A stretch of DNA of 64,000 bases from Escherichia coli (GTDB lineage: Bacteria > Pseudomonadota > Gammaproteobacteria > Enterobacterales > Enterobacteriaceae), in assembly GCF_003018255.1 (NCBI RefSeq), contig NZ_CP027440.1. One strand, 5' to 3'. Under the pieces are notes generated by a model. It did not search any database, was not told the DNA's origin, and saw only the letters and a list, made by a program, of their open reading frames with translations. A program made the translations under genes and the position numbers. Shown one piece after another: positions 1-51,293 of the stretch (within the stretch, counting starts at the first letter, position 1; every line of letters begins with the position of its first letter).

Positions 1-1509
1 CTTCAGCCCCAGACGTTTCGCCAGCCGATGCAGGTTGGCGACGTCGGTTTCCAGCATCCGCGCACAGGCGGCCCAGTTGTGATGATTTTGCGCCAGTGCC
101 TGACGAATGGTTTCACGCTGGAACGCTTCTGTCGCTTCACGCAGGTTTTGCTTAACGATAGGCACCGCCGCCGCTTCTGGCGGCGGCAACGTCACCTCAG
201 GAAAAGCAAAATGTTGCGCCTCAAGAATCACTTCATCGCCGCTGCGAGTGGCTCTCGACAGTACTACCGCCCGATGAATAGCATGTTCCAGTTCGCGCAC
301 GTTTCCCGGAAAACTGTAGTGTTGCAGTAAATTTCGCGCCCCGGCACTTAATACCACGCGGGAGAGCCCCAGCCGCAAACGACACTGCTCGCAGAAATAC
401 CCCGCCAGCAGAATGACATCATCGCCCCGCTCACGCAGCGGCGGCACCGAAAGTGGAAACACGCTCAGGCGATGAAACAAATCGGCGCGGAATCGCCCTG
501 CCAGCACCTCTTCGCGTAAATCGCGGTTAGTCGCCGCCAGCACGCGCACATCGACCCGCAAACTGCGGTCATCGCCAACGCGCTGAATATCGCCATACTG
601 CAACACCCTCAGCAGCTTGGCCTGCAATGCCAACGACAACTCGCCGATCTCATCGAGAAACAGCGTGCCGTTATCCGCCATTTCAAACTTCCCGCTGCGG
701 TTACTGATAGCACCAGTAAACGCCCCTTTCACATGCCCGAACAACTCACTTTCCGCCACACTTTCCGGCAGTGCGGCACAGTTGAGATAGACCAGCGGAT
801 TCACCGCCCGTGGCGAGGCTTCATGAATCGCTTTCGCCACCAGCTCCTTACCGGTTCCCGTCTCACCGCTAATTAAAACGTTGAGATCGGATGCCGCCAC
901 AATCTCAATCTCTTTTTTCAATTGCGTCATGCCTGGGGACAAACCAATCATCTGCGTCTGTTTCACCGCTTCAAACGGCGCGGCATCGCCTGGCAGCATA
1001 TTCTGGCTTTCCAGTTGTTCAATCAGTAACGCATTACTTAACGCTCCCGCCGCCAGTGCGGCAATCAGCCGTAGCTCTTCGTCGCTGAAAACATCGAACT
1101 GATCGGGCTGCATCCCGTCGAGCGTCAAGGCACCGATCAGGTTTTGCCCGGCAAACAACGGCAAACCAACGCAGGCGTGAACCTTCAGACTCTCCTGCCC
1201 TGGAATCAAACCGTCATAAGGATCGGGCAATTCGCTGTCTGCGGGAAAGCGCACCACATCACCCGCGCGGGCAATCGCTTCCAGCCGTGGATGACCTTCC
1301 AGCGCAAAGCGTCTACCGAGTACATCCTTCGCCAGCCCGTCGATGGCAAGCGGAATAAACTGCCGCGAGTCGTAACGTAGCAACGCAGACGCATCGCACT
1401 CCAGCACCTGACGCAGCGTGGTGATCAGGCGCTGAAAACGATCCTGATGACCAATCCCACGCTGCAATTCGATGGCGATATTCGCCAGCACATCAACGGA
1501 AAAACTCAT
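1..1509 (-). CDS. norR: Anaerobic nitric oxide reductase transcription regulator NorR (sigma54-dependent activator); start ATG at 1509-1507, last ~2 codons and stop lie left of the window
   Basis: Minus-strand frame translated by hand: N-terminus [12 protein letters not shown]..., AAA+ motifs GETGTGKE and GAFTGA, C-terminus ...LAKRLGLK at window edge; divergent from norV. Not in ORF track because no stop codon within window. Confidence 0.9.
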
Positions 1510-1695: not shown

Positions 1696-3135
1696 ATGTC
1701 TATTGTGGTGAAAAATAACATTCATTGGGTTGGTCAACGTGACTGGGAAGTGCGTGATTTTCACGGTACAGAATATAAAACGCTGCGCGGCAGCAGCTAC
1801 AACAGCTACCTCATCCGCGAAGAAAAAAACGTGCTGATCGACACCGTCGACCATAAATTCAGCCGCGAATTTGTGCAGAACCTGCGTAATGAAATCGATC
1901 TGACGGATATCGATTACATCGTAATTAACCATGCTGAAGAGGACCACGCCGGGGCGCTGACCGAACTGATGGCACAAATTCCCGATACGCCGATCTACTG
2001 TACTGCCAACGCTATCGACTCGATAAATGGTCATCACCATCATCCGGAGTGGAATTTTAATGTGGTGAAAACAGGCGACACGCTGGATATCGGCAACGGC
2101 AAACAGCTCATTTTTGTCGAAACGCCAATGTTGCACTGGCCGGACAGCATGATGACTTACCTGACAGGCGACGCGGTACTGTTCAGTAACGATGCTTTCG
2201 GTCAGCACTACTGCGACGAGCATCTGTTCAACGATGAAGTGGATCAGACGGAGCTTTTCGAGCAGTGCCAGCGTTATTACGCCAATATCCTGACGCCGTT
2301 CAGCCGCCTGGTAACGCCGAAAATTACCGAGATCCTGGGCTTTAACTTACCAGTCGATATGATAGCGACCTCTCACGGCGTGGTATGGCGCGATAACCCG
2401 ACGCAAATTGTCGAGCTGTACCTGAAATGGGCGGCGGATTATCAGGAAGACAGAATCACCATTTTCTACGACACCATGTCGAATAATACCCGCATGATGG
2501 CCGATGCTATAGCCCAGGGTATTGCGGAAACCGACCCACGCGTAGCGGTGAAAATTTTCAACGTCGCCCGAAGCGATAAAAACGAAATCCTGACCAATGT
2601 CTTCCGCTCAAAAGGCGTGCTGGTCGGCACTTCGACGATGAATAACGTGATGATGCCAAAAATCGCCGGGCTGGTGGAGGAGATGACTGGTTTACGCTTT
2701 CGTAACAAACGCGCCAGTGCTTTCGGCTCTCACGGCTGGAGCGGCGGTGCGGTGGATCGTCTTTCCACACGCCTGCAGGATGCGGGTTTCGAAATGTCGC
2801 TTAGCCTGAAAGCCAAATGGCGACCGGACCAGGACGCTCTGGAGCTATGTCGTGAACACGGTCGCGAAATCGCCCGTCAGTGGGCGCTCGCGCCGCTGCC
2901 GCAGAGCACGGTGAATACGGTGGTTAAAGAAGAAACCTCTGCCACCACGACGGCTGACCTCGGCCCACGGATGCAGTGCAGCGTCTGCCAGTGGATTTAC
3001 GATCCGGCAAAAGGCGAGCCAATGCAGGACGTTGCGCCAGGAACGCCGTGGAGTGAAGTTCCGGATAACTTCCTGTGCCCGGAATGCTCCCTTGGCAAAG
3101 ACGTCTTTGACGAACTGGCATCGGAGGCAAAATGA
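1696..3135 (+). CDS. norV: Anaerobic nitric oxide reductase flavorubredoxin
   Basis: ORF track 479 aa; metallo-beta-lactamase-like N-terminus, flavodoxin-like core, C-terminal rubredoxin CxxC...CPxC (CSVCQW...CPEC). Confidence 0.96.
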
Positions 3136-4265
3136 GCAACGGCATTGTGATCATTGGTTCGGGCTTCGCCGCCCGCCAACTGGTGAAAAATATTCGCAAA
3201 CAGGACGCCTGTATTCCATTAACCCTGATTGCCGCCGACAGCATGGATGAGTACAACAAACCGGACCTCAGCCATGTTATCAGCCAGAGGCAACGTGCCG
3301 ATGACCTTACCCGCCAGACGGCGGGTGAATTTGCCGAGCAGTTTAATCTGCACCTGTTTCCGCACACCTGGGTAACGGATATCGATGCCGAAGCCCATGT
3401 GGTGAAAAGTCAGAATAATCAGTGGCAATACGACAAGTTAGTGCTGGCAACCGGTGCCAGCGCCTTTGTCCCGCCAGTGCCCGGGCGTGAGTTAATGCTG
3501 ACGTTAAATAGTCAGCAAGAGTATCGCGCCTGTGAAACGCAACTGCGGAATGCCCGACGCGTGTTGATTGTTGGCGGTGGCTTGATTGGTAGCGAACTGG
3601 CGATGGATTTTTGTCGTGCAGGCAAAGCGGTCACGCTAATCGACAACGCTGCCAGTATTCTGGCAGCGTTAATGCCACCGGAAGTAAGCAGCCGCTTGCA
3701 GCATCGGTTGACGGAGATGGGCGTTCATCTGCTGTTAAAATCTCAGTTGCAGGGGCTGGAAAAAACGGATTCTGGCATTCTGGCAACGCTGGACCGCCAG
3801 CGCAGCATCGAAGTGGATGCGGTAATTGCCGCCACCGGACTGCGCCCGGAAACCGCCCTGGCACGACGCGCCGGGCTGACGATTAATCGCGGCGTTTGCG
3901 TCGATAGTTATCTGCAAACCAGTAATGCCGATATTTATGCGCTGGGCGATTGCGCGGAAATTAACGGTCAGGTATTGCCGTTCCTCCAGCCGATTCAACT
4001 TAGCGCGATGGTGCTGGCAAAAAATCTTCTCGGCAATAACACGCCGCTGAAACTCCCGGCGATGCTGGTGAAAATCAAAACGCCGGAATTACCGCTGCAT
4101 CTGGCAGGCGAAACCCAGCGTCAGGATTTACGCTGGCAAATTAATACCGAACGCCAGGGAATGGTGGCGCGCGGTGTTGATGATGCCGACCAGCTTCGCG
4201 CCTTTGTGGTCAGTGAGGATCGGATGAAAGAGGCGTTTGGATTGTTGAAAACGTTGCCGGTGTAG
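3132..4265 (+). CDS. norW: NADH:flavorubredoxin reductase
   Basis: ORF track 377 aa; FAD/NAD dinucleotide-binding GxGxxG motifs ([16 protein letters not shown]); 4-nt overlap with norV stop. Confidence 0.95.
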
Positions 4266-19183: not shown

Positions 19184-19247
19184 TGTCATTTTTGACGAAA
19201 ACATGCCGATGAAATGTCATTTTCGACACTCATCGACACGCCCATCC
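19184..19247. promoter_or_regulatory. FhlA-type upstream activating motifs in the hycA-hycB intergenic region
   Basis: TGTCATTTTTGACG and TGTCATTTTCGACACTCATCGACACG; same motif family as the site at 19861-19888. Confidence 0.65.
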
Positions 19248-25775: not shown

Positions 25776-26204
25776 ATGGCAGTTTCAGCAAGAAATCAAT
25801 TAACCGGAACAGTTAGCACAGTAGCAATGGGCGCTGTGAATGATGAAGTAGAACTGACGCTGGCAGGTGGTGCAAAGCTGGTGGCAATTGTGACTCACAG
25901 CAGCCAGCAAGCGCTGGGTCTGGCGAAAGGGAAAGAAGCGATTGCCCTGATTAAAGCCCCGTGGGTCACGCTGGCAACGGAAGACTGTGGACTGAAATTC
26001 TCTGCTCGCAACCAGTTTGCTGGCAGCGTGTCGACAATCACCGAAGGCGCAGTGAACGCCACTGTCCATATCAAAACGGATGCGGGTTTTGAAATTGTGG
26101 CAGTGGTAACAAATGAAAGTCAGGATGAAATGAAACTCACCACTGGCTCGCGCGTTATTGCATTGATCAAAGCATCAGCCATCCTGATTGCCACCAAAGC
26201 GTAA
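25776..26204 (+). CDS. Small di-Mop (tandem TOBE-domain) molybdate/tungstate-binding protein (molbindin)
   Basis: ORF track frame 25737..26204; start placed at ATG 25776 preceded by AAAGGAGG; two tandem ~70-aa repeats each beginning SARNQ(L/F)xG..S and ending ALIKA (MAVSARNQLTGTVS...ALIKAPWV / FSARNQFAGSVS...ALIKASAI). Confidence 0.75.
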   Translation: MAVSARNQLTGTVSTVAMGAVNDEVELTLAGGAKLVAIVTHSSQQALGLAKGKEAIALIKAPWVTLATEDCGLKFSARNQFAGSVSTITEGAVNATVHIKTDAGFEIVAVVTNESQDEMKLTTGSRVIALIKASAILIATKA

Positions 26205-26215
26205 ACGCCTTATTT

Positions 26216-26250
26216 GCCGGAGAGTATGGCTCTCCGGCAGATTTATTTCT
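26216..26250 (+). terminator. Rho-independent terminator after the di-Mop gene (convergent with ygbA)
   Basis: GCCGGAGAG-TATGG-CTCTCCGGC hairpin followed by AGATTTATTTCTTT. Confidence 0.65.
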
Positions 26251-26587
26251 TTGGACGATATTTTTCTGGCAACTCCGGCACCGGACGCTTGTCATCGATG
26301 AGATGACGCACGGTTAAGATCGGATGACGCCACAGCATTCTCGGCCCGGCCCAACGCATAATCTGTTTCATCTCTTCACGCTTTGCAGGCTGGTAACAGT
26401 GCACCGGACACTGCTTACAGGCTGGTTTCTCTTCACCGAACACACATTTATCCAGCCGCTTTTGCGCGTAAGCAAACAACGCCTCGTAATGCTCCGGCTC
26501 TGCTGACGCCTGCGGGCATTTCGCTTGATAAAGATCGATCATTTTTTTAATCGTCAGTTTTTCACGAGAGATACGCTTGCCGGACAT
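26243..26587 (-). CDS. ygbA: Nitrous oxide-stimulated promoter family protein YgbA
   Basis: ORF track 114 aa; Cys-rich small protein (CPQ...CKQCPVHCYQ); position between fhlA region and mutS, divergent from mutS. Confidence 0.88.
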   Translation of the reverse strand: MSGKRISREKLTIKKMIDLYQAKCPQASAEPEHYEALFAYAQKRLDKCVFGEEKPACKQCPVHCYQPAKREEMKQIMRWAGPRMLWRHPILTVRHLIDDKRPVPELPEKYRPKK

Positions 26588-26604
26588 GCTGCCTCCATAC
26601 TCTT

Positions 26605-26627
26605 AAGGTGCATTTATATTACAACTT
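26605..26627. promoter_or_regulatory. NsrR-like operator (imperfect 11-1-11 inverted repeat) in the ygbA promoter region
   Basis: AAGGTGCATTTATATTACAACTT lies 18-40 nt upstream of the ygbA start codon; resembles the NsrR consensus as I recall it (AAGATGCATTT-N-AAATGCATCTT). Confidence 0.55.
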
Positions 26628-26872
26628 AATTTTAAAGGGGACTATGGCTCTGAAGGAGGAGGTTTCTTCAACCGACGAATTTGGCGATCTTGTTTCATCG
26701 TCATCACGCAAAAGCTGCAAAGCAGCATTTTTCGCGGAACCGACATCAAGAACTCACCTTTCGCGTCTTCCCCTGAAATGATTAACTCCGGTATCATGTG
26801 CGCCTTATGTGATTACAACGAAAATAAAAACCATCACACTACATTTAACATCAGGGAGCCGGACTTAACCCC

Positions 26873-29434
26873 ATGAGAACAATAGAAAATTTCGACGCCC
26901 ATACGCCTATGATGCAGCAGTATCTCAAGCTGAAAGCCCAGCATCCCGAGATCCTGCTGTTTTACCGGATGGGCGACTTTTATGAACTGTTTTATGACGA
27001 CGCAAAACGGGCGTCGCAACTGCTGGATATTTCACTGACCAAACGCGGTGCTTCAGCGGGAGAGCCAATCCCGATGGCGGGGATTCCCTACCATGCGGTG
27101 GAAAACTACCTCGCCAAACTGGTGAATCAGGGCGAATCGGTTGCTATTTGTGAACAGATTGGCGATCCGGCGACCAGCAAAGGGCCGGTCGAGCGCAAAG
27201 TTGTCCGTATCGTTACGCCGGGCACCATCAGCGATGAAGCGCTGTTGCAGGAACGTCAGGACAACCTGCTGGCGGCTATCTGGCAGGACAGCAAGGGGTT
27301 CGGCTACGCCACGCTGGATATCAGCTCCGGGCGTTTTCGCCTGAGCGAACCGGCGGACCGCGAAACGATGGCGGCAGAACTGCAACGTACGAATCCAGCG
27401 GAATTACTGTATGCGGAAGATTTCGCCGAGATGTCGCTGATTGAAGGTCGCCGCGGCCTGCGTCGTCGCCCGCTGTGGGAGTTTGAAATCGACACCGCTC
27501 GCCAGCAATTGAACCTGCAATTTGGCACCCGAGATCTGGTCGGTTTTGGTGTGGAGAACGCACCACGCGGACTTTGTGCTGCCGGTTGTCTGTTGCAGTA
27601 TGCGAAAGATACCCAACGCACGACCCTGCCGCATATTCGTTCTATCACTATGGAACGTCAGCAGGACAGCATCATTATGGATGCCGCGACGCGTCGTAAC
27701 CTGGAAATTACTCAGAACCTGGCCGGCGGTGCGGAAAATACGCTGGCTTCAGTGCTCGACTGTACTGTAACGCCGATGGGTAGTCGTATGCTGAAACGCT
27801 GGCTGCATATGCCAGTGCGCGATACCCGCGTGTTGCTTGAGCGCCAGCAAACTATTGGCGCATTGCAGGATTTCACCGCCGAGCTGCAGCCGGTACTGCG
27901 TCAGGTCGGCGACCTGGAACGTATTCTGGCGCGTCTGGCTTTACGAACTGCTCGTCCACGCGATCTGGCCCGTATGCGTCACGCTTTCCAGCAACTGCCG
28001 GAGCTGCGCGCGCAACTGGAAGGTGTCGATAGCGCCCCGGTACAAGCACTGCGTGAGAAGATGGGCGAGTTTGCCGAACTGCGCGACCTGCTGGAGCGAG
28101 CAATCATCGACACGCCGCCGGTGCTGGTACGCGACGGTGGTGTTATTGCGACTGGTTATAACGAAGAACTGGATGAATGGCGCGCGCTGGCTGACGGCGC
28201 GACCGATTATCTGGAGCGTCTGGAAGTCCGCGAGCGTGAACGTACTGGCCTGGACACCCTGAAAGTCGGCTTTAACGCGGTTCATGGTTATTACATTCAG
28301 ATCAGCCGTGGACAAAGCCATCTGGCACCCATCAATTACATGCGTCGCCAGACGCTGAAAAACGCCGAGCGCTACATTATTCCAGAGCTAAAAGAGTACG
28401 AAGACAAAGTTCTCACTTCAAAAGGCAAAGCACTGGCACTGGAAAAACAGCTTTATGAAGAGTTGTTCGACCTGCTGTTGCCGCATCTGGAAGCGTTGCA
28501 ACAGAGCGCGAGCGCGCTGGCGGAACTCGACGTGCTGGTGAACCTGGCGGAACGGGCCTATACGCTGAACTACACCTGCCCGACCTTTATTGATAAACCG
28601 GGTATTCGCATCACCGAAGGCCGCCATCCGGTGGTTGAACAGGTGCTGAATGAGCCGTTTATCGCCAACCCGCTGAACCTGTCGCCGCAGCGTCGCATGT
28701 TGATCATTACCGGTCCGAATATGGGCGGTAAAAGTACCTATATGCGCCAGACCGCACTGATTGCGCTGATGGCCTACATCGGCAGCTATGTACCGGCACA
28801 AAAAGTCGAGATTGGACCTATCGATCGCATCTTTACCCGCGTAGGGGCAGCGGATGATCTGGCATCCGGGCGTTCAACCTTTATGGTGGAAATGACCGAA
28901 ACCGCCAATATTTTACATAACGCCACCGAGTACAGTCTGGTGCTGATGGATGAGATTGGGCGTGGAACGTCCACTTACGATGGTCTGTCGCTGGCGTGGG
29001 CGTGCGCGGAAAATCTGGCGAATAAGATTAAAGCGTTGACGTTGTTTGCTACCCACTATTTCGAGCTGACCCAGTTACCGGAGAAAATGGAAGGCGTCGC
29101 CAACGTGCATCTCGATGCACTGGAGCACGGCGACACCATTGCCTTTATGCACAGCGTGCAGGATGGCGCAGCGAGCAAAAGCTACGGCCTGGCGGTTGCA
29201 GCTCTGGCCGGCGTGCCAAAAGAGGTTATTAAGCGCGCACGGCAAAAACTGCGTGAGCTGGAAAGCATTTCGCCGAACGCCGCCGCTACGCAAGTGGATG
29301 GTACGCAAATGTCTTTGCTGTCAGTGCCAGAAGAAACGTCGCCTGCGGTCGAAGCACTGGAAAATCTCGACCCGGATTCACTGACTCCGCGTCAGGCGCT
29401 GGAGTGGATTTATCGCTTGAAGAGTCTGGTGTAA
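26873..29434 (+). CDS. mutS: DNA mismatch repair protein MutS
   Basis: ORF track 853 aa; Walker [10 protein letters not shown], conserved mismatch-binding N-terminus (GDFYELF). Confidence 0.97.
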
Positions 29435-36253: not shown

Positions 36254-36290
36254 AAAAGGTCCGATGGGCATCGGACCTTTTATTTAGCGC
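36254..36290. terminator. Bidirectional terminator between convergent ygbN and ecdD
   Basis: AAAAGGTCCGAT-GGGC-ATCGGACCTTTTATTT: stem flanked by A-run and T-run, usable on both strands. Confidence 0.75.
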
Positions 36291-36520
36291 TTACCTTCCG
36301 CCAGCAGCGGCGGGATGCTCGGCACCATCGGCGCGTCATCAATATCTTTCTGCGTCATGCGGAACGCTTCGGGATAATGTTCGCGGCTGGTGCGGCGTAG
36401 CGGTTCGGTATCGCGCCAGGTATAGAGGCAATGCTGGCACTGGTAGACCATCCAGACATCTTTTACCGGCGATTTCGCCATCACTTCAATCTGTTCATCG
36501 GCACAACGTGGACAAATCAT
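36284..36520 (-). CDS. ecdD: Small subunit D of hydroxyarylic-acid (4-hydroxybenzoate/vanillate-type) decarboxylase
   Basis: ORF track 78 aa with zinc-ribbon-like Cys pairs (CPRCADEQ ... CQHC); immediately downstream of UbiD-like gene in same operon. Confidence 0.72.
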   Translation of the reverse strand: MICPRCADEQIEVMAKSPVKDVWMVYQCQHCLYTWRDTEPLRRTSREHYPEAFRMTQKDIDDAPMVPSIPPLLAEGKR

Positions 36521-36530
36521 CTTGTTCTCC

Positions 36531-37958
36531 TTATTGACGTGCGGCCAGCATAGCGGTCAGTTTTTCAGCCCAGGCTTTGGTTTCCGGTAAGTCCACCACC
36601 GGCTGGCTGTAGTGACCACGGTTGTCCGGGGCGACAGGCGTGGTGGCGTCGATAATCAGCTTGTCGGTGATCCCCGCCGGACTTGAGCCAGGGTCGAGTT
36701 CCAGCACGGACATATTCGGCAACTGTACCAAATCCCCTGCCGGGTTCACTTTCGAGGAGAGCGCCCACATCACCTGCGGCAGGTTGAACGGATCAACGTC
36801 TTCATCGACCATAATCACCATCTTCACGTAGCCCAGACCGTGCGGCGTGGTCATCGCACGCAGGCCCACCGCGCGGGCAAAGCCGCCGTAGCGTTTTTTG
36901 GTGGAGATAATCGCCAGCAGGCCGTGGGTGTACATGGCGTTTACCGCCTGCACTTCCGGGAACTCGGCTTTCAGTTGTTGATACAGCGGCACGCAGGTGG
37001 CAGGCCCCATCAGGTAGTCGATTTCGGTCCACGGCATACCAAGATAGAGCGATTCGAAAATCGGTTTGGTACGGTAAGAGACTTTATCGATACGCACCAC
37101 GGTCATGTTACGCCCGCCGGAGTAGTGGCCGGTAAACTCACCGAACGGCCCTTCAATCTCACGTTTACGACTTTCGATAACCCCTTCGAGGATCACTTCC
37201 GAGCCCCACGGCACATCAAAACCGGTCAGCGGGGCGGTGGCGATCGGGTACGGGCTTTCGCGCAGCGCGCCTGCCATTTCGTACTCAGACTGATCGTATT
37301 TCAGCGGCGTGGCCCCCATTAGGGTGATGATCGGATCGTTACCGAGTGTGATGGCAATCGGCAGATCTTCACCGCGCTCTTCTGCTTTATGCAGATGCAG
37401 GGCGATATCGTGCATCGGCACCGGTTGCAGGCCGAGCTTACGCTTGCCCTTCACTTCCATGCGGTAGATGCCGACGTTCTGCTTGCCGAAGTTATCCGGG
37501 TCGAGCGGATCGCGGGAAACCACGCACGCTTTATCGAGATAGAAACCGCCATCACCGTCGTTTAAACGAAACAGCGGCAGAATATTGAACAGGTTGATCT
37601 CGTCGCCATCGACGGTGTTCTGCGCCCAGGCTGGATTGGCGCGGCGCTCCGGGGCAATGGGGAAGTTATCCCAGCGGCGGATAAACTCATCAATCTGTTT
37701 TTTAACCGGGGTGTTTGGCGGCAGGCCGAGGGAAATCGCGTGGTTCTGCCAGGAACCGATGGTGTTCATTGCCACGCGGGCATCGATAAAGCCGCGAATA
37801 TTATCAAACCAAAGCGCGGGCGCGCCGTCGCCGATACGCCCGGTGGCGTTGGCTGCGGCTGCCAGATCCGGTTCCGCGTTCACCTCTTCGCTGATTTTCA
37901 GTAACTGGCCGTGGTCATCAAGCGCCTGTAAAAAGCTGCGTAAATCATCAAATGCCAT
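36531..37958 (-). CDS. ecdC: UbiD-family (prenylated-FMN-dependent) decarboxylase, subunit C of hydroxyarylic acid decarboxylase
   Basis: ORF track 475 aa; UbiD-family length and layout; between UbiX-like gene and small D subunit. Confidence 0.88.
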   Translation of the reverse strand: MAFDDLRSFLQALDDHGQLLKISEEVNAEPDLAAAANATGRIGDGAPALWFDNIRGFIDARVAMNTIGSWQNHAISLGLPPNTPVKKQIDEFIRRWDNFPIAPERRANPAWAQNTVDGDEINLFNILPLFRLNDGDGGFYLDKACVVSRDPLDPDNFGKQNVGIYRMEVKGKRKLGLQPVPMHDIALHLHKAEERGEDLPIAITLGNDPIITLMGATPLKYDQSEYEMAGALRESPYPIATAPLTGFDVPWGSEVILEGVIESRKREIEGPFGEFTGHYSGGRNMTVVRIDKVSYRTKPIFESLYLGMPWTEIDYLMGPATCVPLYQQLKAEFPEVQAVNAMYTHGLLAIISTKKRYGGFARAVGLRAMTTPHGLGYVKMVIMVDEDVDPFNLPQVMWALSSKVNPAGDLVQLPNMSVLELDPGSSPAGITDKLIIDATTPVAPDNRGHYSQPVVDLPETKAWAEKLTAMLAARQ

Positions 37959-38551
37959 TATTCATTCTCCTGAGAAAAATTCCGGGCCTGCGGCAATCCT
38001 TGCCAGCGCCTGGCGTGAGGATGTTCGAGGCCAAATTGATCCAGCACGCGGGCTACCACGTGGTGGACAATGTCATCTACCGTTTCGGGATGGTTATAAA
38101 AGGCAGGCATCGGCGGCACCATCGCCACGCCCATGCGCGAAAGTGCGAGCATATTTTCGAGATGGATTGTGCTAAGCGGCATTTCACGCGGCACCAGCAC
38201 CAGTTTGCGGCCTTCTTTGAGCACGACGTCCGCCGCGCGCCCCACCAGGCCATCGGCGTAACCAGCGCGGATACCGGCGAGCGTTTTCATACTGCATGGA
38301 ATAACGATCATGCCGTCGGTACGAAAGGAGCCGGAAGAGATAGTCGCCGCCTGATCCGCCGGGTTATGGCTGAAGTCTGCGAGGGCGGCAACATCGCGAG
38401 CGCTGTAAGGCGTTTCCAGTTCAATCGTGATTTTCGCCCACTTCGACATCACTAGATGAGTCTCGACATTCGGCATCTCCCGCAGCGCTTGCAGTAATGC
38501 CACACCAAGAGGCGCACCGGTAGCCCCTGTCATCCCGACGATCAGTTTCAT
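37958..38551 (-). CDS. ecdB: UbiX-like flavin prenyltransferase (Pad1-type), subunit B
   Basis: ORF track 197 aa; MKLIVGMTGATGA flavoprotein N-terminus typical of UbiX/Pad1. Confidence 0.9.
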   Translation of the reverse strand: MKLIVGMTGATGAPLGVALLQALREMPNVETHLVMSKWAKITIELETPYSARDVAALADFSHNPADQAATISSGSFRTDGMIVIPCSMKTLAGIRAGYADGLVGRAADVVLKEGRKLVLVPREMPLSTIHLENMLALSRMGVAMVPPMPAFYNHPETVDDIVHHVVARVLDQFGLEHPHARRWQGLPQARNFSQENE

Positions 38552-38697
38552 TGCTTACTCTCTTAATTGTTCGTATACGAACGTTATTATTAACATACTC
38601 CTTCATTTCCACAGCGGCAAGGATTGAAAAGTAACAACATCTTCTTCGTCACTGAAAAACCGCTATGATAGCGACAGAGAATTAGCCCGGAGTTTAC

Positions 38698-39105
38698 ATG
38701 GCGTTACGAAATAAAGCGTTCCATCAGTTACGACAGCTTTTTCAGCAGCATACAGCTCGCTGGCAGCACGAGTTACCTGACCTGACCAAACCACAGTACG
38801 CGGTGATGCGCGCCATTGCTGATAAGCCTGGTATCGAACAGGTGGCACTGATAGAAGCAGCAGTCAGCACCAAAGCAACGCTGGCAGAAATGTTGGCAAG
38901 AATGGAAAATCGTGGCTTAGTCAGACGTGAACATGACGCCGCTGACAAGCGGCGACGCTTTGTCTGGCTGACTGCCGAAGGAGAAAAGGTACTTGCTGCG
39001 GCGATCCCCATTGGTGACAGTGTGGATGAGGAATTTTTGGGGCGTTTGAGTGCAGAAGAGCAGGAGCTGTTTATGCAGTTGGTGCGCAAGATGATGAGCA
39101 AATAG
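38698..39105 (+). CDS. MarR/SlyA-family transcriptional regulator
   Basis: ORF track 135 aa; winged-helix region (LTKPQYAVMRAIADKPGIEQVAL ... RREHDAADKRR); divergent from the decarboxylase operon. Confidence 0.82.
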   Translation: MALRNKAFHQLRQLFQQHTARWQHELPDLTKPQYAVMRAIADKPGIEQVALIEAAVSTKATLAEMLARMENRGLVRREHDAADKRRRFVWLTAEGEKVLAAAIPIGDSVDEEFLGRLSAEEQELFMQLVRKMMSK

Positions 39106-50365: not shown

Positions 50366-51188
50366 CGGTTTATCCCCGCTGACGCGGGGAACACACATGA
50401 ATGTCGGTTCAGACCGTGTTTTTACCCGGTTTATCCCCGCTGGCGCGGGGAACACGAGGCTGAACAGGGAGGGGGCTACCGGCACAGCGGTTTATCCCCG
50501 CTGGCGCGGGGAACACTTGCCAACCGCCAAAGACTGGAAAACCAATCTCGGTTTATCCCCGCTGGCGCGGGGAACACTTAAACTTGCCGCCGGTATGGGG
50601 GGAACGGGCCGGTTTATCCCCGCTGGCGCGGGGAACTCGTTTCGCGTCGATCGCCTTTTGCGCAATCGCGCCGGTTTATCCCCGCTGGCGCGGGGAACTC
50701 TTTCTTTTTCCATTTAAGTTATTCTAATACCCCGGTTTATCCCCGCTGGCGCGGGGAACTCGATCATGCCTTACTAAAAGGTCCGCTGACGGGCGGTTTA
50801 TCCCCGCTGGCGCGGGGAACTCATCATGACAAAAAGTTACGCTCATCTATTCAACGGTTTATCCCCGCTGGCGCGGGGAACTCTCCATATGTTGCCCCGC
50901 TCGGGACAACACCCCCGGTTTATCCCCGCTGGCGCGGGGAACTCTTAGCGCCGACAAAAGAAGTTGCGGATAACAGCGGTTTATCCCCGCTGGCGCGGGG
51001 AACTCGCCCGTTCCCAGGGAGTGCGGCTCCACCCCCGCGGTTTATCCCCGCTGACGCGGGGAACTCTTCAGTTTCACACTCGGTAATGCCGTTATTTACG
51101 GTTTATCCCCGCTGGCGCGGGGAACTCCTCGGGGCCAGCCTCCCCCATTAACCCGGCACCGGTTTATCCCCGCTGGCGCGGGGAACTC
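50366..51188 (-). CRISPR. Type I-E CRISPR array, 14 direct repeats of 29 bp (plus-strand form CGGTTTATCCCCGCTGGCGCGGGGAACTC) separated by 13 spacers of 32-33 bp; transcribed on the minus strand from the leader at 51189-51293
   Basis: Repeats located by eye at 50366, 50427, 50488, 50549, 50610, 50672, 50733, 50794, 50855, 50916, 50977, 51038, 51099, 51160 (61-62 bp period); repeat is reverse complement of the I-E repeat GAGTTCCCCGCGCCAGCGGGGATAAACCG; adjacent cas2-cas1. Confidence 0.97.
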
Positions 51189-51293
51189 TCTAAAAGTATA
51201 CATTTGTTCTTAAAGCATTTTTTCCCATAAAAACAACCCACCAACCTTAATGTAACATTTCCTTATTATTAAAGATCAGCTAATTCTTTGTTT
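51189..51293 (-). promoter_or_regulatory. CRISPR leader (AT-rich) between last repeat and cas2 stop
   Basis: About 105 bp AT-rich sequence (..AAAGTATACATTTGTTCTTAAAGCATTTTTTCCCATAAAAACAACC..) directly abutting repeat 14, located at the cas2-proximal end. Confidence 0.85.

Follow-up and report, generated by a model that had tools for sequence, protein, structure and literature searches.

The published NsrR operator of ygbA in an Escherichia coli ygbA-mutS spacer and its conserved placing across the Enterobacteriaceae

NsrR is an NO-sensing repressor of the Rrf2 family that carries an iron-sulfur cluster, and nitrosylation of this cluster by NO releases the protein from DNA. Membership of ygbA in the NsrR regulon has long been established for both E. 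coli and Salmonella, and the exact site through which the gene is regulated is in print. Rodionov et al. (2005; PMC1274295) already recorded ygbA as an NsrR target, by way of a personal communication, and in Salmonella the ygbA mRNA is 31.8-fold up in an nsrR mutant (PMC2884951). PMC5320621 describes ygbA as "known to be regulated by NsrR" and cites, for E. coli K-12, binding of the ygbA promoter in a ChIP-chip experiment and reporter results on NsrR-dependent expression. Mehta et al. (2015; PMC5320621) list in their Table 4 a total of 27 predicted NsrR sites of the 11-1-11 type in E. coli CFT073, one of which lies at ygbA. The text of the same paper places ygbA among the most highly up-regulated CFT073 genes during growth with nitrate, an NO-generating condition, with reference to its Table 1, which in its retrieved form has no row named ygbA. 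ChIP-seq in CFT073, whose 23-mer at ygbA is identical to the one analyzed here, gave no peak at ygbA, a result that the authors judge to be a probable false negative (PMC5320621).

Here, we describe an analysis of this site in a 64,000-nucleotide stretch of an E. coli chromosome (assembly GCF_003018255.1, contig NZ_CP027440.1), which we refer to in its whole length as the window. The feature is the NsrR operator of ygbA that has already been published, and in that respect nothing in it is new. Our own analysis supplies the match to the NsrR motif, its ranking among the matches in the window and the conservation of its position; the binding of NsrR in K-12 and the NsrR- and NO-dependent expression of ygbA come from the literature, and the work of Bodenmiller & Spiro (2006), Partridge et al. 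(2009) and Karlinsey et al. (2012) enters as it is cited in PMC5320621, PMC2884951 and PMC7082413. We put at roughly 0.93 the probability that positions 26605-26627 are the operator by which NsrR controls ygbA and that the operator serves ygbA only; repression would then occur by occlusion of the predicted promoter and be relieved by NO.

According to the RefSeq annotation of its best match, the window runs from norR, which is cut by the left edge, through norV, norW, hypF, hydN, ascGFB, hycI-A, hypA-E and fhlA to a gene for a TOBE-domain protein, followed by ygbA, mutS, pphB and ygbI-N. The right part carries a hydroxyarylic acid decarboxylase cluster, rpoS, nlpD and, further on, cysDNC, iap, a CRISPR array, type I-E cas genes and cysHIJ; the CRISPR array was recovered by a repeat search and was missed by Tandem Repeats Finder. 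The regulated gene, ygbA, is annotated by RefSeq at 26243-26587 on the minus strand and encodes a protein of 114 amino acids that matches the Pfam family PF11756 (YgbA_NO; E=4e-41), and mutS occupies 26873-29434 on the plus strand. As the initial annotation had stated, the two genes are divergent and are separated by a spacer of 285 bp, exactly 26588-26872. Several complete E. coli chromosomes match the 801 bases around the operator with 100% identity, and of 5426 complete E. coli genomes 5419 contain some version of this region. A spacer of the window type, at an identity of at least 99%, was found in 971 of the 5417 matching records. Within the genus Escherichia the spacer is a mosaic, in which positions 26628-26760 are highly variable (8-13 variable columns per 20 nt in the most variable part), 26768-26807 are invariant, and the mutS leader hardly varies. 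A scan of 26200-27000 against Rfam gave no match at E<=1.

The operator is the 23-mer AAGGTGCATTTATATTACAACTT at 26605-26627, an 11-1-11 imperfect inverted repeat, AAGGTGCATTT-A-TATTACAACTT, that ends 17 nt ahead of the ygbA ATG. Its identification rests on identity with a published site, on its weight-matrix score and on conservation. The ygbA entry in Table 4 of PMC5320621, a predicted site of CFT073, is the same 23-mer, letter for letter. The main weight matrix used for scoring was palindromised and built from 24 published sites, the ygbA and hycB sites being omitted because both lie in the window. With this matrix the operator scores 22.2 bits and is the top match of the 64-kb window, the runner-up reaching 14.5 bits; the training sites themselves span 12.7-32.1 bits, so that the score of the operator falls inside their range. 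By exact tail probability, about 0.001 matches at 22.2 bits are expected per 64 kb, and that score was reached in none of 300 Markov-1 random windows, whose maxima averaged 13.8 bits and went no higher than 20.9 bits. A second matrix, made from 15 ChIP-seq-positive sites only, again ranked the operator at the top (22.85 bits). The initial annotation had proposed an NsrR-like operator at ygbA and a weight-matrix scan as a check; the scan places the site clearly above background, and the operator is borne out as well by the identical published 23-mer and by the conserved placing described below.

Scored with a half-site matrix, the operator resolves into two inverted half-sites with a 1-bp gap, one of which is weak. 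The strong half-site, AAGGTGCATTT (26605-26615, plus strand; 14.7 bits), is proximal to ygbA and covers the predicted transcription start; a score of at least 12 bits is attained at only 6 of the 128,000 strand positions in the window. The weak half-site, AAGTTGTAATA (26617-26627, minus strand; 7.4 bits), overlaps the predicted -10 hexamer. The repeat is complementary at only 7 of its 11 positions, a level of symmetry that 0.85% of the 23-mers in the window equal; 2.2 such 23-mers are expected in the spacer and three are seen. We therefore rejected the bare palindrome as evidence, its symmetry being at the level of chance. The inverted repeat that the initial annotation had pointed out ahead of ygbA is indeed present at 26605-26627, but what goes beyond chance, and far beyond it, is the match to the NsrR motif and not the inverted repeat itself.

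Conservation of the operator was assessed at loci found by a YgbA protein scan with one genome per species, which returned 80 loci from about 25 genera of the Enterobacteriaceae, including Escherichia, Citrobacter, Salmonella, Enterobacter, Klebsiella, Raoultella, Kluyvera, Lelliottia, Leclercia, Pluralibacter, Hafnia and others. When the 400 nt upstream of ygbA were searched, 78 of the 80 genomes had their best match to the NsrR matrix 15-22 nt from the ATG of ygbA, and most of these matches scored 17-27 bits. Alignment of the 79 distinct sequences on the site revealed flanks that are essentially unconserved and a sharp island of conservation with the same extent as the 23 bp. In the orientation of ygbA, the positions that are invariant or nearly so among the 79 sequences are AA (1-2), GTA (6-8), AT (11-12), TGCA (16-19) and TT (22-23). 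The K-12 operator is AAGATGTATTTATATTACATCTT, from which the window allele differs at three degenerate positions, 4, 7 and 20; these differences lower the symmetry from 9/11 in K-12 to 7/11 and the score from 23.1 to 22.2 bits. Most Escherichia alleles are separated from one another by substitutions at these same positions, and their scores stay at 21.5-23.6 bits. Escherichia sp. MOD1-EC7003 has a further difference, at position 8, and its score is down to 17.0 bits.

The neighborhood of ygbA differs between genera. [quoted passage not shown] Since the operator is retained where islands part the two genes, it travels with ygbA and not with mutS. These comparisons amount to a tidy confirmation of a known site and introduce no new principle; what they contribute is the fixed placing over about 25 genera and the indication that one half-site doubles as a promoter element.

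That indication comes from the pattern of conservation inside the site. At positions 7-12 most genera have TATTAT and Escherichia has TAATAT, and positions 1, 2, 5 and 6 of this hexamer (T, A, A and T) show no or almost no variation among the 79 genomes. The A and T at site positions 11 and 12, invariant in 78-79 of the 79 genomes, are off the consensus of the NsrR half-site but suit a -10 hexamer. In the 79-genome profile, a small peak of conservation, TTG, stands exactly 17 bp upstream of the hexamer, and most genera have TTGnnn there. From these comparisons we infer that the conserved TATTAT/TAATAT and TTG are the -10 and -35 elements of the promoter of ygbA. The window has TAATAT (26616-26621, minus strand) as the predicted -10 hexamer and a poor TAGTCC (26639-26644, minus strand) as the predicted -35 hexamer; a simple sigma-70 promoter scan of 26150-26950 found no consensus promoter for either ygbA or mutS. 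A -10 element at 26616-26621 would place the start of ygbA transcription near 26609, inside the strong half-site, so that the operator would overlap both the -10 element and the start. The predicted leader would then be about 22 nt long (26588-26609, minus strand), with a Shine-Dalgarno sequence, GGAGG, at 26592-26596.

These positions suggest how the operator may work. NsrR bearing an intact cluster would occupy 26605-26627 and block access of RNA polymerase to the ygbA promoter, the weak half-site doubling as the -10 hexamer and the strong half-site covering the start near 26609. On exposure to NO the cluster would be nitrosylated, NsrR would depart, and ygbA would be transcribed with its leader of about 22 nt. 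The operator serves ygbA only; the mutS promoter and leader lie 170-270 bp off and have published controls of their own in Hfq, ArcZ and SdsR. As the -10, -35 and +1 positions are predictions, occlusion as the mode of repression is a prediction as well. The gene for NsrR lies outside the window.

The mutS-proximal third of the spacer is a known regulatory element that had been missed initially, the leader of mutS controlled by Hfq and ArcZ. Chen & Gottesman (2017; PMC5580658) describe a mutS 5' untranslated region of 74 nt with an Hfq-binding (AAN)3 motif, ARN1, at -50 to -42, and an ArcZ pairing site that overlaps a second motif, ARN2, at -26 to -18. Mapped by alignment on the strength of its homology with K-12, this leader occupies 26799-26872 on the plus strand of the window, with ARN1 as AATAAAAAC at 26823-26831. 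In RNAduplex, the complete ArcZ RNA and the entire mutS leader formed long, uninformative duplexes, and a run restricted to the seed gave a clean pairing of 14 bp with 26844-26859 (around -29 to -14) at -19.7 kcal/mol, versus -18.1 kcal/mol in K-12. Two single-base differences from K-12 within the ArcZ site preserve the pairing, a U.G pair becoming C-G and an A-U pair becoming G.U.

The operator reading has to be weighed against other accounts of this spacer. It could be argued that the AT-rich DNA of the ygbA -10 region simply resembles the NsrR motif, that NsrR does not bind the B2/CFT073-type allele and that ygbA is induced by NO in some other way; the missing ChIP-seq peak in CFT073 despite an identical 23-mer, the chance-level 7/11 symmetry of the palindrome and the 7.4 bits of one half-site would all fit such an account. 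It leaves unexplained, however, why matrices untrained on the ygbA site give 22-23 bits, less than one bit below the ChIP-chip-positive K-12 allele (22.2 versus 23.1 bits), and why arms of the form AA..GTA and TGCA..TT, which exceed the needs of a -10 hexamer, are conserved in 78 of 80 genomes. The induction of ygbA in CFT073 under NO-generating conditions, together with the judgement of the authors that the missing peak is a false negative, also argues against it, and we consider a mere resemblance highly improbable. A different proposal is that NsrR at 26605-26627 is shared by the two genes and acts on the divergent mutS promoter as well, which would couple NO stress to mismatch repair. The divergence of ygbA and mutS across 285 bp is all that speaks for this. 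The operator is centered about 183 bp upstream of position 26799, the mutS start given by the 74-nt leader (PMC5580658), no NsrR half-site above 5 bits is present near the mutS promoter, and the controls of mutS described in PMC5580658, by Hfq, ArcZ and SdsR, are post-transcriptional. In addition, ygbA retains the operator in Salmonella, Citrobacter and Klebsiella, where islands such as SPI-1 and sitABCD come between the two genes. Control of mutS by NsrR was rejected on the grounds that no half-site is found near its promoter and that, where the genes lie apart, the operator stays with ygbA, and we give it next to no credence.

The conserved DNA might, alternatively, reflect coding constraint from a real small-protein gene in the spacer, and two open reading frames come into question. 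The one on the plus strand (26644-26781) had been given 44 codons and dismissed as unlikely to be real; it has 45 codons and a stop, and the dismissal holds, since the frame is truncated or shifted in K-12, E. whittamii and another Escherichia lineage. Its 45 codons in the window and in E. albertii are reduced to 7 in K-12 and 25 in E. whittamii and are frameshifted to 76 codons in Escherichia sp. MOD1-EC7003, so that the frame is not kept open in relatives; its variable sites are spread over the codon positions as 19/18/15, it has no Pfam match, and gene finders call it on only a handful of contigs. The AAAGGGG ahead of its ATG is a point in its favor. This ATG overlaps the predicted -35 element of ygbA. 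The second frame, on the minus strand (26642-26797), had gone unmentioned. It comprises 51 codons in the window and 44 in K-12-type alleles, for which PGAP calls it a "hypothetical protein" (WP_000611932.1 and WP_000611926.1); it is so called in many E. coli genomes and on more than 1000 contigs, and is open in all seven of the Escherichia spacers compared, at 43-59 codons. Several of its pairwise pN/pS values are below 1. Yet a frame of this kind has a chance of about 0.65 per lineage of staying open through some 12 substitutions, its variable sites are flat over codon positions 1/2/3 (14/11/15), and pN/pS, from very small counts, ranges from 0.1 to 1.5 as against 0.04 for ygbA. The C-terminus varies in length and frame between species. 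The first 10 codons are invariant in DNA, synonymous sites included, which places the constraint there on the DNA rather than on a protein; this invariant stretch immediately precedes the mutS start and probably represents the promoter of mutS. The minus-strand start codon lies 2 nt from the mutS start site, so that expression would need a promoter antisense to the mutS leader, and the frame has no relative outside Escherichia/Shigella, no Pfam match and no name other than "hypothetical protein". Neither frame was accepted as a gene, the plus-strand one for its truncation and the minus-strand one for its want of a coding signature; the minus-strand frame is probably non-coding, with only a slim chance of a real product, and a small-protein gene on either strand as the source of the conserved DNA is very unlikely. 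We regard as similarly unlikely the proposal that the minus-strand frame is a genus-restricted small protein or upstream ORF or, in a milder variant, that the B2-type operator weakens NsrR occupancy. Were the frame real, a transcript antisense to the mutS leader would run into ygbA, hinder mutS initiation and tie the two genes together; were the milder variant true, the three-base difference between the B2-type allele (the window and CFT073) and K-12 would explain the missing CFT073 ChIP-seq peak. In practical terms, both frames in the spacer are without a coding signature, and one of them is annotated by RefSeq pipelines in many genomes.

The operator at ygbA is one of several NO-related sites in the window. 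At the left end, norR (1-1509, minus strand, cut by the window edge) is followed by norV (1696-3135) and norW (3132-4265), norVW being divergent from norR. A pattern search of the control region between norR and norV (1510-1695) found three NorR boxes of the form GT-N7-AC, GTCAATTTGAC at 1522-1532, GTCATATCGAC at 1543-1553 and GTCATTTTGAC at 1567-1577, the consensus being the one described in PMC1274295, and, downstream of the boxes, a sigma-54 promoter (GG-N10-GC), CTGGCACGCAATCTGCAA at 1632-1649. The second-best match to the NsrR matrix, at 14.5 bits, is another site of the 11-1-11 type, AACATGCCGATGAAATGTCATTT, between hycA and hycB at 19200-19222; its reverse complement appears in Table 4 of PMC5320621 as the "hycB" site, marked as ChIP-seq positive in CFT073, and it is a candidate for a third NO-related site of the window. 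The initial annotation had seen two separate NO-responsive units, ygbA and norRVW. Both stand, norRVW with its genes, its three NorR boxes and its sigma-54 promoter all in place, but the published NsrR site at 19200-19222 had been overlooked, and the window appears to hold three NO-related control sites rather than two. The link that had been drawn between ygbA and the other NO genes holds as far as a common signal goes, but the sites are 7-25 kb apart and are read by different regulators.

Set beside the systems described elsewhere, the site adds little beyond correct annotation. The control of norVW by NorR and sigma-54, intact at 1510-1695, is likewise NO-responsive and follows the opposite logic, an enhancer-binding activator acting at a sigma-54 promoter as against a repressor that would occlude a sigma-70 promoter at ygbA; the two belong to independent regulons, 25 kb apart, one under the NorR activator and the other under the NsrR repressor. 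The leader of mutS controlled by Hfq, ArcZ and SdsR (PMC5580658) retains both ARN1 and the ArcZ site within 26799-26872, and this control is separate, post-transcriptional, and acts on mutS and not on ygbA. The ygbA operator of K-12 and CFT073 (Bodenmiller & Spiro, 2006, and Partridge et al., 2009, as cited; PMC5320621) is matched in gene, position and 11-1-11 layout, the window allele departing from the K-12 operator only at positions 4, 7 and 20 and scoring less than one bit lower. The NsrR operators of ytfE, hmp and hcp, with the consensus AAGATGCATTT-N-AAATGCATCTT, belong to the same motif family and are promoter-proximal repressor sites; in comparison, the ygbA site is more asymmetric, one of its halves being degenerate because, on the promoter predicted here, it would double as the -10 hexamer.

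Ranking the window with an NsrR weight matrix built from published sites gave a second-best match, surpassed in score by the ygbA operator (26605-26627) alone. This NsrR-type site, AACATGCCGATGAAATGTCATTT, lies in the gap between hycA and hycB (19200-19222) and scores 14.5 bits. Read as the reverse complement, it matches the 'hycB' sequence that was positive by ChIP-seq in CFT073 (PMC5320621 Table 4). The initial annotation had counted two NO-responsive units, norRVW at the left end and the ygbA operator; with the hycA-hycB site, the NO-related control sites in the window number three, not two.

The 285-bp intergenic region separating ygbA from the divergent mutS (26588-26872) is a mosaic within Escherichia, in which positions 26628-26760 are very variable whereas positions 26768-26840 are conserved. 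In the ygbA-proximal and central portion (26628-26760), as many as 13 columns vary within a 20-nt stretch, and indels occur; no variation is seen in the 40 nt surrounding the mutS start (26768-26807), and almost none in the mutS leader (26799-26872). Within this leader, the site that pairs with the small RNA ArcZ (26844-26859) carries two substitutions relative to K-12, which convert a U.G pair to C-G and an A-U pair to G.U; both retain pairing. The predicted ArcZ-mutS duplex is slightly more stable in the window (-19.7 kcal/mol) than in K-12 (-18.1 kcal/mol).

The middle of the spacer contains a small hairpin, GCTGCAAAGCAGC (26709-26731), with a 5-bp stem and T-runs on both strands. It is flagged as terminator-like in either orientation, ranks first among the bare palindromes of this spacer (8/11), and is only partially conserved in K-12; the hairpin may be a chance feature. 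A minus-strand ORF of 51 codons (26642-26797) overlaps, in antisense, the 45-codon plus-strand ORF (26644-26781). K-12-type alleles possess a 44-codon form of the minus-strand ORF, which is labeled 'hypothetical protein' by PGAP (WP_000611932.1) in many E. coli genomes. The reading frame is open in every Escherichia spacer compared but lacks a coding signature.

A cluster encoding hydroxyarylic acid decarboxylase subunits D, C, and B and a MarR-family regulator (36285-39105) lies between ygbN and rpoS and is the non-K-12 version of the polymorphic mutS-rpoS region. Adjoining cas2-cas3 is a type I-E CRISPR array (50366-51190) of approximately 14 repeats, CGGTTTATCCCCGCTGGCGCGGGGAAC, with a 61-bp period. 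The otherwise near-identical record NZ_CP116067.1 has an array shorter by about 370 bp (six units), which marks the window as deriving from another strain. On the side of ygbA away from mutS, whereas the divergent spacer lies on the other, a further element is found. Downstream of ygbA, whose product is 100% identical to E. albertii YgbA, a stem-loop with a strong 14-bp stem followed by a T-run, ATTTGCCGGAGAGTATGGCTCTCCGGCAGAT (26212-26242), is likely a bidirectional intrinsic terminator. It separates ygbA from a convergent gene (25776-26204), located between fhlA and ygbA, that encodes a 142-aa TOBE-domain protein (molybdate-binding, resembling the ModE C-terminus). K-12 differs from the window in lacking this TOBE-domain gene, such that fhlA is followed directly by ygbA.
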